A stretch of 6,185 nt of DNA from a virus. Taxonomy: Duplodnaviria; Heunggongvirae; Uroviricota; Caudoviricetes. The stretch lies in the IMG/VR virus record IMGVR_UViG_2778261570_000026; one strand, written 5' to 3'. Positions 4,541 to 6,185 of this stretch are shown here, one piece after another. The notes below the pieces were generated by a model. It did no database searches and was not told where the DNA came from. It worked only from the letters and a program-made list of their open reading frames with translations. Both the position numbers and the translations under genes were made by a program. Within the stretch, counting starts at the first letter, position 1. Each line of letters opens with the position of its first letter.

Positions 4541-4966
4541 ATGACTGAGAAAGCAAATTCAACCAGAGCATTGATCATGGCACTGCCTGAGGCGCAGAAA
4601 TACCCGACGCTTGCGGAAAATCTCGCAAATAATGGCGCATCACTGACAGAAGCCCGAACGGTGCTTACTGCAAAGGCTGAGAGTGATAAACAGCGCATAG
4701 AGGGTATCAAGGCGTTACCGCTGGCATCAAAATACCCTGAGTTCACCAGTAAGCTGATTGAGTGTGGTTCTGAAGTAATGACAGTAACCTATGCACAAAC
4801 GTTACTGGCTGCCGTGGATGCCCAGGCAATGATGCAGGAAAAGAAAACGGCTTTTCTGTTTGATGCGTACATGGAAAAGCACAGCCCGAAATGTGTTGGA
4901 CCAGCAGCCGGTGATGGCAACGCCGGACTGACCGAAGATGAAAAGCTGTTGCTGTCTGTTAAGTAA
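4541..4966 (+). CDS. Hypothetical protein (141 aa) with an internal tandem duplication; last gene of the capsid operon
   Basis: Co-directional, tightly packed after the gpD-like gene and followed by a terminator. Contains two related ~33-aa modules (LPEAQKYPTLAENLANNGASLTEARTVL and LPLASKYPEFTSKLIECGSEVMTVTYAQTLL). No recognisable family. Confidence 0.6.
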   Translation: MTEKANSTRALIMALPEAQKYPTLAENLANNGASLTEARTVLTAKAESDKQRIEGIKALPLASKYPEFTSKLIECGSEVMTVTYAQTLLAAVDAQAMMQEKKTAFLFDAYMEKHSPKCVGPAAGDGNAGLTEDEKLLLSVK

Positions 4967-4980
4967 CTGAAATGAACGTT

Positions 4981-5012
4981 CGCGAGGTTGGCAAGGCCTC
5001 GCGATTTTTTTT
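4981..5012 (+). terminator. Rho-independent terminator closing the capsid operon
   Basis: Stem CGCGAGG (4981-4987) pairs with CCTCGCG (4997-5003) around a 9-nt loop, followed by a T8 run (5005-5012). Confidence 0.7.
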
Positions 5013-5022
5013 GTGTCCGGAA

Positions 5023-5128
5023 CGGTGGTGATCACCCCAATTTTCACGGGTCCTTTCCGGAACCTGAAACACCGGGGGTACGTGTACGCGCAAAAACGCG
5101 CTATTTATGACGCTTTCCGGGAAAGGGT
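5023..5128 (+). repeat. Left copy of an inverted repeat (~100 bp) upstream of the Nu1-like gene
   Basis: Core 5065-5110 equals the reverse complement of 5793-5838 at 40 of 46 positions with no gap, including a perfect 17-mer (5086-5102 = reverse complement of 5801-5817). Weaker similarity extends to about 5023-5128. Contains the palindrome GGTGATCACC (5027-5036) and CTTTCCGG motifs (5053-5060, 5113-5120). Confidence 0.6.
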
Positions 5129-5177
5129 ACACCACCACCACTTGATTAATATTTAATCGCATTATTAAGGTAACGTT

Positions 5178-5618
5178 ATGAATAATAAAGATTGTTTTGT
5201 TAGTCAGCAGGAAATAGCAGAACATTTCAAGGTCAACAGAACCACTATTCGCGCATGGACCAAACAGGGCATGCCGTATCTTGATGCGGATCGCGGAAAG
5301 TCCGGCGGTTATCACATCGGACACACATTATTCTGGTGCATGGGTAAAAGTCATCTTGATGCTATTGAGTACCACGGAGAAACCAGCGCACTGGAAAAGA
5401 TTATGGTTGCCAGGTTGATTTCATCAGAGCGCGACGAGTATTTCAGTGAAGAAACAGAACAGCGATTTGATAATGGTCTGCAGATTTACGGGTACTCGCC
5501 GGAAGATGTGAGCAAGGCACGAAATAAAATGGCTGGCTTTCTGGCTGGGTGGCGTCATGCCGTAGCCGTTCGCCGTGAGCATCTGCAACAATCTGTAGTT
5601 ACAGAGCAGGAAAGCTAA
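5178..5618 (+). CDS. Nu1-like winged-HTH DNA-binding protein: candidate terminase small subunit or packaging-specificity factor
   Basis: 146 aa. The N-terminus (VSQQEIAEHFKVNRTTIRAWTKQGMPYL) closely parallels the lambda Nu1 DNA-binding N-terminus as remembered (KKQLADIFGASIRTIQNWQEQGMPV). The remainder is not recognisably Nu1-like and the protein is shorter than Nu1. No large terminase gene follows. Nu1-like HTHs also occur in small regulators, so the function is uncertain. Confidence 0.55.
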   Translation: MNNKDCFVSQQEIAEHFKVNRTTIRAWTKQGMPYLDADRGKSGGYHIGHTLFWCMGKSHLDAIEYHGETSALEKIMVARLISSERDEYFSEETEQRFDNGLQIYGYSPEDVSKARNKMAGFLAGWRHAVAVRREHLQQSVVTEQES

Positions 5619-5627
5619 TAAGTATGC

Positions 5628-5720
5628 AATACAACAACCGCGTATTTTTGTTAAACCATTTGATTTAATTGGTATTTTTGGAACCATAACATCAAAAAAA
5701 CGTCCTCAGGTTGTTGTATT
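5628..5720. repeat. AT-rich structured non-coding region downstream of the Nu1-like gene
   Basis: 12-bp perfect inverted repeat AATACAACAACC (5628-5639) / GGTTGTTGTATT (5709-5720) brackets two direct repeats GTATTTTTG..AACCAT (5642-5659 and 5672-5687). A third ACAACAACC copy lies at 5768-5776. Confidence 0.45.
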
Positions 5721-5774
5721 TCTTTCAGTTTTCTCTTAGTTATCAAATGGATATAACAAACAATTAAACAACAA

Positions 5775-5880
5775 CCACCCTTCCGAAAAATCTCATAAAC
5801 AGCGCGTTTTTGCGCGTCCCATGACCCCCGGTGTTTCATTTTCCAGGAAGGACCCGCCACAATTACGGCATTGTTTCCCA
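5775..5880 (-). repeat. Right copy (inverted orientation) of the repeat flanking the Nu1-like gene
   Basis: Reverse complement of 5793-5838 matches 5065-5110 at 40 of 46 positions. Flanking similarity is weaker (about 17 of 30 in the outer arm). Confidence 0.6.
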
Positions 5881-5900
5881 TCATCACGGAGGCCATGACA

Positions 5901-6185
5901 ATGACCGAAGCCGAAATGCTCAAAATGATTCGCCGCGTTACCGGAGCCAACCAGGCAGCAGGCAAACAGGAGGCCACGCAGCCGGACAGCGTGATAGCCG
6001 AAAATTACGCGCGTGTGGTGGCTGAGGTGATGCGCCGTGACGGTATTGAGCTTAACGGCGTGGATATGCGCAATATATGCACCAGAGTTCTGGAGATGTT
6101 GTCATACCGTCGCCGCGTGCAGATGTACCAGGAGAAAGAAAAAATTACTTACCACTGGAAGAAGCCGGAGCGGTTACGACGTTAA
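5901..6185 (+). CDS. Hypothetical protein (94 aa)
   Basis: ORF is in frame from 5871, but GGAGG (5888-5892) gives a good spacer only for ATG 5901; ATG 5895 is 2 nt after the SD. Stop TAA is at 6183-6185, the window edge. No recognisable family. Confidence 0.5.
   Translation: MTEAEMLKMIRRVTGANQAAGKQEATQPDSVIAENYARVVAEVMRRDGIELNGVDMRNICTRVLEMLSYRRRVQMYQEKEKITYHWKKPERLRR

Follow-up and report, generated by a model that had tools for sequence, protein, structure and literature searches.

Two predicted lambda-type cos sites face each other across rppB in a phage-inducible chromosomal island of the EcCICFT073 family

The 6,185-nucleotide virus record IMGVR_UViG_2778261570_000026, which we call the window and by which we mean that whole stretch, is the right half of a phage-inducible chromosomal island (PICI) of the EcCICFT073 family, and near its right end a single gene lies between two inverted copies of a repeat of about 100 bp. 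We are highly confident in reading the two repeat arms of this island as the cosQ-cosN-I2 parts of two convergent lambda-type cos sites and the gene that they bracket as rppB, which encodes a redirecting-phage-packaging (Rpp) protein. The paired cos sites around an rpp gene are a rediscovery of an arrangement published and tested in 2018-2019, met here in another member of the family, one of RppB type with a non-lambda cosN.

Results

The inverted repeat

The sequence-only reading had reported an inverted match of 40 out of 46 positions, fading into weaker similarity to about 106 bp, around a Nu1-like open reading frame (ORF), and exact recounting agrees with it. Positions 5065-5110 and the reverse complement of 5793-5838 are identical at 40 of 46 positions without gaps, and in the same register the match extends to 65 of 82 (5039-5120 with 5783-5864) and, over the outer span, to 73 of 106 (5023-5128 with 5775-5880). 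An independent repeat search of the whole window recovered the same pair (82 nt, 79%, arms 662 nt apart) as its sole long inverted repeat. In 100 shuffles the top ungapped inverted-repeat score averaged 14.4 and never exceeded 20. The window itself scores 48, and the repeat is real and far above chance, which is excluded as its source. The left arm ends 50-58 bp before the ATG of the ORF at 5178-5618 and the right arm begins 165 bp past its stop, close to the roughly 50 and 160 bp given earlier.

Predicted cos cores in both arms

Both arms are collinear with lambda cos, carrying in order ACGGGTCCTT(T)CC (cosQ), the cut region and GC..CGCT(A/G)TTTATGA (the I2 region). The 15-nt ACGGGTCCTTTCCGG and CGCTATTTATGA anchors are found in both arms, at a distance from each other that is 1 nt shorter than in lambda. 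The elements are placed as follows.

5039-5120, plus strand: left repeat arm, predicted cos1 core, pointing rightward; collinear with both lambda cos and the cos1 published for EcCICFT073
5045-5058, left arm: cosQ-like CACGGGTCCTTTCC
about 5070-5095, left arm: cosN region, with a putative 12-nt cohesive end near 5077-5089 and the variable centre ACGTGTA
left arm: I2-like GCAAAAACGCGCTATTTATGACGCTTTCCGG
5783-5864, minus strand: right repeat arm, predicted cos2 core, pointing leftward; homologous to the cos2 published for EcCICFT073, with the same position and orientation
about 5845-5859, right arm: cosQ-like GGCGGGTCCTTCC
about 5808-5833, right arm: cosN region, with the variable centre CATGGGA
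right arm: I2-like GCAAAAACGCGCTGTTTATGAGATTTTTCGG

The cos regions were compared by anchored inspection; a five-region multiple alignment was partly out of register. When each arm was searched against 50,697 phage records only two matches were returned, SerU-LTIIb and vB_EcoM-705R4, and as lambda fell below the threshold, the relationship with lambda rests on the collinear motifs and not on a BLAST score. In the matches inspected, namely phages vB_EcoM-705R4 and SerU-LTIIb and prophages of SK6988, E2863 and MSB1_4I, arm-like sequence lies between the lysis genes and terS, the gene of the small terminase subunit (TerS).

The same inverted pair surrounds rppA in EcCICFT073 (77 nt, 82%), and both of its arm sequences are printed in Fig. 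S1A of the Fillol-Salom papers (PMC6092414, PMC6739421) as cos1, upstream of rppA, and cos2, the right arm in reverse complement. In EcCICFT073 each of the two cos sites is functional (Fillol-Salom et al. 2018, ISME J, PMC6092414; 2019, Mol Cell, PMC6739421). Transfer of EcCICFT073 driven by lambda or phi80 needs cos1, the cosB of which is recognised by RppA-TerS, and transfer is abolished when both cos sites are deleted (PMC6092414, PMC6739421). We read the arms of the window, from their sequence, as the cosQ-cosN-I2 cores of two convergent lambda-type cos sites, and the repeat stops at the inner edges of the arms because the two cosB regions there differ and are unrelated to each other. Among the meanings offered earlier, a duplicated packaging recognition region bound by the Nu1-like protein came closest, in that the arms are predicted packaging sites. 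It misplaced the binding sites, because the arms correspond to cosQ-cosN-I2 cores with two unrelated cosB regions sitting just inside them, so that the arms are neither duplicates of cosB nor binding sites of the ORF product.

The cosN of the window is of a variant class and not that of lambda. The sequence GGGCGGCGACCT found in lambda and EcCICFT073 is absent, and in its place the window has GGTACGTGTACGC on the left and GGTCATGGGACGC on the right. The class can be written as CCGGGGGT-7 nt-CGCGC, that is CCGGGGGT-ACGTGTA-CGCGC in the left arm and CCGGGGGT-CATGGGA-CGCGC in the right. The same non-lambda class is found upstream of terS in the lambdoid prophages and phages SK6988, SerU-LTIIb and 705R4, and since it is common to them, phages of this group are the likely helpers. 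Within every island examined both arms carry one cosN class. The strict IHF consensus WATCAANNNNTTR has no site in 4900-6000.

The 7-13 nt at the centre of cosN vary among islands that share more than 96% identity elsewhere (ACGTGTA, CATGGGA, AGCCATA, GGCCATA, GACGGCAGA, GGCGGGAGCGG), corresponding to about 5078-5088 and 5815-5825 of the window, and the flanking CCG.GGG and ACGCGC are fixed; the cohesive-end sequence seems to be free to vary or to be often converted. In the GPEC874 island a lambda-type cosN in both arms is combined with an Rpp-type cosB on one side and a GGTTGTTGT-type cosB on the other, indicating that cosN class and cosB type assort independently among islands.

Two unrelated cosB regions

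Just inside the arms lie the following elements.

5123-5177, plus strand: cosB of cos1, predicted island-private specificity; includes ACACCACCACCAC, TTGATTAATATTTAA and the ribosome-binding region of rppB
5129-5141, in the cosB of cos1: proposed Rpp site ACACCACCACCAC, with TTGATTAATATTTAA next to it
5631-5776, minus strand: cosB of cos2 (cosB2), predicted phage-type specificity, with three R boxes GGTTGTTGT
5768-5776 (minus), 5709-5717 (plus) and 5631-5639 (minus): R boxes R3, R2 and R1, each GGTTGTTGT

The cosB of cos1 matches that of EcCICFT073 cos1, the region conferring RppA-dependent packaging (PMC6739421), at 80% over 75 nt, and ACACCACCACCAC-TTGATTAATATTTAA is present in both. ACACCACCACCAC occurs once in the window. 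On the left just one R3-like site is proposed, in line with the description of PICI cos and of phage N15 by Murialdo and Feiss (2022), who propose the Rpp site at bp 55-63, ACCACCACC.

On the other side, the three exact matches of GGTTGTTGT in the window all fall in cosB2, with 0.07 expected by chance, and they alternate in orientation as R3, R2 and R1 of lambda do. Behind these boxes there is no terS; the 3' end of rppB is there instead. Over 163 nt the region has 77% identity with the cosB that immediately precedes terS in a lambdoid prophage of E2863. In EcCICFT073, cosB2 is 84% identical to the cosB of the second lambdoid prophage of CFT073, and cos2 is 95.7% identical to the cos of the MSB1_4I prophage, which lies directly upstream of terS WP_000235436.1, the same TerS protein in the MSB1_4I and CFT073 prophages. 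The cosB2 of EcCICFT073 shows no similarity to the cosB of either lambda or phi4, two of the sequences with which the published papers compare it (PMC6092414, PMC6739421). The cognate TerS proteins (168-169 aa) keep the C-terminal part of Nu1 and diverge in their N-terminal DNA-binding regions. Both arms, convergent, together with cosB2, are present in all 10 of the 10 contigs that encode an identical RppB. The cosB of cos2 reads as a copy of a genuine prophage cosB, and we infer that cos2 may be an Rpp-independent entry for a second class of helper, recognised directly by that helper's own TerS, because Rpp may not capture a TerS with a divergent DNA-binding region.

Close to the island, on its upstream side, lies the CFT073 prophage with the matching cosB: about 5 kb separate the end of its last annotated gene fragment from the island integrase gene. 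This prophage is distinct from phi4, which has been identified as the island helper in CFT073.

RppB, the product of the gene between the arms

The gene and the terminator that precedes it are located as follows.

5178-5618, plus strand: rppB, 146 aa, redirecting-phage-packaging protein; RppC match, with a winged helix-turn-helix (HTH) and a dimerisation/TerS-capture domain
4980-5012, plus strand: intrinsic terminator closing the capsid-gene operon, a 10-pair stem and a T run

The ORF at 5178-5618 is RppB and not a terminase subunit. Residues 1-135 match the sequence of the RppC crystal structure (PDB 6HLK) with E=1.5e-33, whereas the DNA-binding domain of lambda Nu1 (1J9I) is matched, over residues 8-49, at an E of only 0.31. 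There is no match to PF07471 (Phage_Nu1) at an E of 0.01 or below, Pfam yielding weak HTH matches alone, and true Nu1 homologues score 68-333 bits on that family. A terminase small subunit, considered as a candidate for this ORF, was rejected on the missing Phage_Nu1 match and on the contrast between the RppC and Nu1 comparisons. What is right in the earlier label "Nu1-like" is the winged-HTH domain, common to both proteins; the identity as a terminase small subunit falls away. RppB of the window is 84% identical to RppA of EcCICFT073 and, barring a few differences, agrees with the RppB of 146 residues that Fillol-Salom et al. 2019 (PMC6739421) give in their Fig. S1C; some of these differences are probably machine-reading errors.

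The DNA-contact residues proposed for Rpp, R21, T22, R25, K29 and K41 plus T23 and W27 (Fillol-Salom papers, PMC6092414, PMC6739421), are all present in RppB of the window, and in the alignment positions 30 and 39 are Q and R where RppC has R30 and K39. Once Rpp has bound the TerS of the helper phage, the resulting complex recognises the island cos in place of the phage cos (PMC6739421). Binding of TerS and redirection have been published for RppA and RppC, and for RppB solely the block of lambda and phi80 (PMC6739421).

An equivalent hairpin and T run is found at the matching place in EcCICFT073. The terminator, lying before cos1, makes the cos-rpp-cos block a separate unit, and because rppB sits behind it, a predicted promoter of its own must lie somewhere in 5120-5177.

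Flipping and exchange of the block in relatives

Block orientation was counted in 5,426 complete Escherichia coli genomes; the calls depend on public assemblies, and normal reads can span repeats of this length (80-120 bp). In the EcCICFT073-like island of WP4-S17-ESBL-08 an 813-bp block is inverted relative to CFT073, at 99.4% identity and with directly oriented flanks, so that the same RppA protein is encoded on the opposite strand. Islands of the RppA type have the CFT073 orientation in 68 genomes and are flipped in 15. Sister islands with the backbone of the window (e.g. TUM1881 and U90) carry a full Nu1-type terS between the arms in place of rpp, and in this TerS-type cassette terS is on the plus strand in 8 genomes and on the minus strand in 2. 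A synthetic query with the block of the window flipped was matched by 0 genomes at 80% coverage or more; the flipped RppA islands surfaced by accident.

Both orientations are found side by side in E. coli U90 (NZ_CP068035.1), which has two island copies, at 1.30 and 3.38 Mb, with the block in opposite orientation. These copies differ at 0 positions across the left flank (640 nt), the block (902 nt) and the right flank (330 nt), and in the stretch fetched their four annotated proteins (the decoration protein, the 141-aa protein, TerS and the last gene product) are identical, though two near-identical 10-kb copies could in principle be mis-joined. The only other differences are in the arms, where the left cosN varies in its 7-nt centre and a single base is changed in the inner arm. 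One copy now has a left cosN centre identical to the right one, a pattern that would fit a break at cosN repaired from the facing partner site.

The longest exact run common to the two arms measures 17 nt in the window type, whereas RppA-type islands have 25 nt and TerS-type islands 35 nt. Flips are thus seen only where the exact arm identity is at least 25 nt and not at 17 nt, which fits homology-dependent recombination. The earlier suggestion of an invertible or exchangeable cassette is borne out at the population level in relatives, where both orientations occur and rpp is replaced by a full terS in the sister islands. Its remaining parts, a site-specific recombinase and a flip of the window's own allele, are not.

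The island and its other genes

The island of strain P393-F10 covers 100% of the window at 96.5% identity and is about 10 kb long. It begins with int, next to tRNA-Pro, ends with the last gene ahead of yejO and lacks tail and lysis genes. An HTH-type regulator follows int in this annotated relative. The gene order, at tRNA-Pro, is int, AlpA-like HTH, Icd, DUF4222, a RepA helicase with iterons, SSB, and gpE-like and gpD-like capsid genes, and the same architecture and order are found in EcCICFT073, the prototype Gram-negative PICI. Induction, replication and packaging aided by lambdoid phages, and interference with them, have been published for EcCICFT073 and for cloned rppB and rppC (PMC6092414, PMC6739421). 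The gene calls in the window combine a Pfam scan of the larger ORFs with annotated relatives.

380-1795: RepA-type AAA_25 helicase (Pfam)
1793-1987: iterons, directly 3' of the helicase gene (repeat search)
in the window: DUF4222 protein, SSB, lambda gpE-like major capsid protein and gpD-like decoration protein (Pfam and relatives)
4541-4966: 141-aa protein upstream of cos1 (phrog_53 match)
5871/5898-6185: last gene, phrog_1561, function unknown

The segment 1793-1987 has three spaced copies of AAAAAGTGGG(T/G)AGTAAAA and an exact 26-nt pair 168 bp apart. As these iterons adjoin the 3' end of a RepA-type helicase gene, the segment is very likely the iteron replication origin of the island.

In the lambda gpC-type "head maturation protease" family, the 141-aa protein matches the C-terminal 80 residues, at positions 500-577 of the 583 of phrog_53, a part that is Nu3 scaffold-like, so that the island encodes gpE-like, gpD-like and Nu3-like proteins. 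In published work the gpE-like and gpD-like genes had no phenotype (PMC6092414, PMC6739421). The last gene is by far the most widespread part of the region: about 1,745 of the 5,426 complete E. coli genomes have a match to it, EDL933 and Nissle 1917 among them, and at times it adjoins a DUF1441 protein.

Discussion

Based on homology with the EcCICFT073 experiments, we propose that a lambdoid helper phage would induce the island and that RppB would bind the helper TerS. The Rpp-TerS complex would lose recognition of the phage cosB and bind instead the private cosB of cos1 (ACACCACCACCAC), bringing the helper large terminase to the adjacent cosN, so that concatemeric island DNA would be cut and packaged rightward from cos1. 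The second site, we infer, has a complete phage-type cosB with R3, R2 and R1, copied from a second class of lambdoid phage, and may support leftward packaging without Rpp. Facing each other and having sequence in common, the two sites make the block between them prone to homologous recombination. Its flips, and the exchange of rpp for terS, would be a by-product of facing cos sites, possibly of terminase breaks at cosN, and not a programmed switch. It is possible, and we put it forward tentatively, that cos1-rpp/terS-cos2 is a self-contained packaging-specificity cassette, in which one cos is private via Rpp or TerS and the other copies that of a different lambdoid class, the TerS of which is probably not captured by Rpp, widening the helper range, while repair of cosN breaks flips the block, homogenises its arms and swaps the cassette between islands and phages.

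Several points weigh against our main reading of the arms and of how the island is packaged. The nick sites are uncertain, the cosN not being GGGCGGCGACCT and the anchor spacing being 1 nt shorter, and cos function in this island, the positions of its cohesive ends, the binding of RppB to cosB and the helper are all carried over by homology. With lambda or phi80 as helper, deleting cos2 raised the transfer of EcCICFT073 (PMC6092414, PMC6739421), indicating that cos2 can come at a cost. Identical scores were obtained for the 15 flipped RppA islands, which may represent one event or lineage. Finally, orientation variants, found in the RppA-type and TerS-type relatives, number 0 in the 21 cases of the window's RppB type (11 complete genomes and 10 further contigs).

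That cos2 has no function of its own, being a leftover of module exchange (cos-cosB-terS minus terS) so that only cos1 matters, strikes us as rather unlikely. The block is mosaic, with a full terS at that place in the sister islands, and with lambda and phi80 as helpers cos1 is required and cos2 deletion increases transfer, all of which a leftover would explain. Yet the three R boxes of cosB2 are all intact and exact, the arms and cosB2 are kept in all of the contigs with identical RppB, and a second cos is found in every island type examined. Moreover, the double cos deletion of EcCICFT073 is worse than deletion of cos1 alone, indicating that cos2 is functional, and the helpers of the published tests lack the TerS whose cosB is copied in cos2.

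A programmed invertible switch of the Hin, Gin, Cin or shufflon type, in which a recombinase acting at the arms would switch packaging specificity or rpp expression, could account for the presence of both orientations in nature in two cassette types, including two otherwise identical copies in one genome. We nevertheless consider it very improbable. Neither the annotated genes of the island nor the larger window ORFs scanned with Pfam include an invertase, and the integrase at the far end is the sole recombinase of the island. The arms are cos sites common to prophages and not short crossover sites, both cos remain intact in either orientation with nothing obvious switched, and the flips are confined to the types with arm identities of 25 and 35 nt. 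The arms could also be duplicated promoter or operator regions driving convergent or antisense transcription across the gene, and rppB, lying behind a terminator, does need a promoter of its own in 5120-5177; but the promoter scan gave no sigma-70-like site in either arm, its single match in 4900-6000 lying inside the ORF at chance expectation, Rfam has no RNA family match in the window, and the arms are fully explained as cos cores. This earlier suggestion finds no support, and its chances are slighter still than those of a switch. Two insertions of a small dispersed element, REP-like or MITE-like, had been suggested as well, and arm-like sequence does occur in 4267 of the 5426 E. coli genomes when EcCICFT073 is the query. 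The copies inspected, however, either sit at the place of cos in lambdoid prophages and phages, directly before terS, or belong to this PICI family; the window has just two arm copies, and their sequence is collinear with the cosQ-cosN-I2 of lambda. We give this explanation practically no credence.

The core finding by itself changes nothing, as two cos sites around rpp were already described. Not found in the EcCICFT073 papers are the copy of a prophage cosB in cos2, the flips of the cos-gene-cos block and the non-lambda cosN of this island. Searching the literature for inversion between PICI cos sites, or for cos2 by name, gave nothing beyond the two Penades papers, and the review of Murialdo and Feiss makes no mention of cos2, of a second cos site or of inversion. 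As the cosB of cos2 matches a resident prophage that was not used as helper in the published experiments, the authors' open question about the two cos sites becomes testable directly, with strains that already exist. Facing cos sites are, as the natural flips show, a recombination-prone module, which bears on the trade in packaging specificity between satellites and phages, and recombination between facing cos sites is relevant to the design of PICI-based delivery vectors.

Comparison with known systems

With lambda cos the window shares the order and nearly the spacing of cosQ (ACGGGTCCTTTCC), cut region and CTATTTATGA segment, as well as three R boxes, alternating, in cos2, and related prophages carry their cos at the same place relative to a Nu1-type gene. 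It differs from lambda in its cosN sequence, in the spacing shorter by 1 nt, in R-box sequences that are unrelated, and in having two sites that face each other; and the gene behind cos1, unlike Nu1, is an Rpp without the TerL-binding C-terminus. In Hin/hix, Gin/gix of Mu and Cin of P1, too, a gene-sized block lies between inverted repeats and is found in both orientations in natural isolates, whereas the block of the window has no invertase, its repeats are cos cores of 80-120 bp, and nothing is visibly switched on or off.

The closest relatives are the islands themselves. EcCICFT073 has the same order of capsid genes, terminator, cos1, rpp, cosB2, inverted cos2 and last gene; the cosN of the window is of another class and its arms differ in the 7-nt centre, the boxes of cosB2 are CCGGACATG there and GGTTGTTGT in the window, and EcCICFT073 sits next to phoQ, whereas the window-type island is at tRNA-Pro next to yejM. 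In the sister islands (TUM1881, U90) the backbone is 93-97% identical up to the cosN of each arm, and there too two convergent cos sites have two different cosB regions, but the block encodes a 194-aa Phage_Nu1 protein with a 21/phi4-like cosB, and the second cosB, with CAGATCCGTTCTT boxes, matches SK6988-type prophages and phage SerU-LTIIb.

The role proposed for cos2 has parallels in P4 with P2, in SaPIbov5 and in SaPIbov4, in which the satellite carries a helper-type cos for the helper terminase, and SaPIbov4 has been reported with two putative cos sites. Those satellites use helper specificity only, whereas the island of the window is predicted to have one specificity that is private and created by Rpp.

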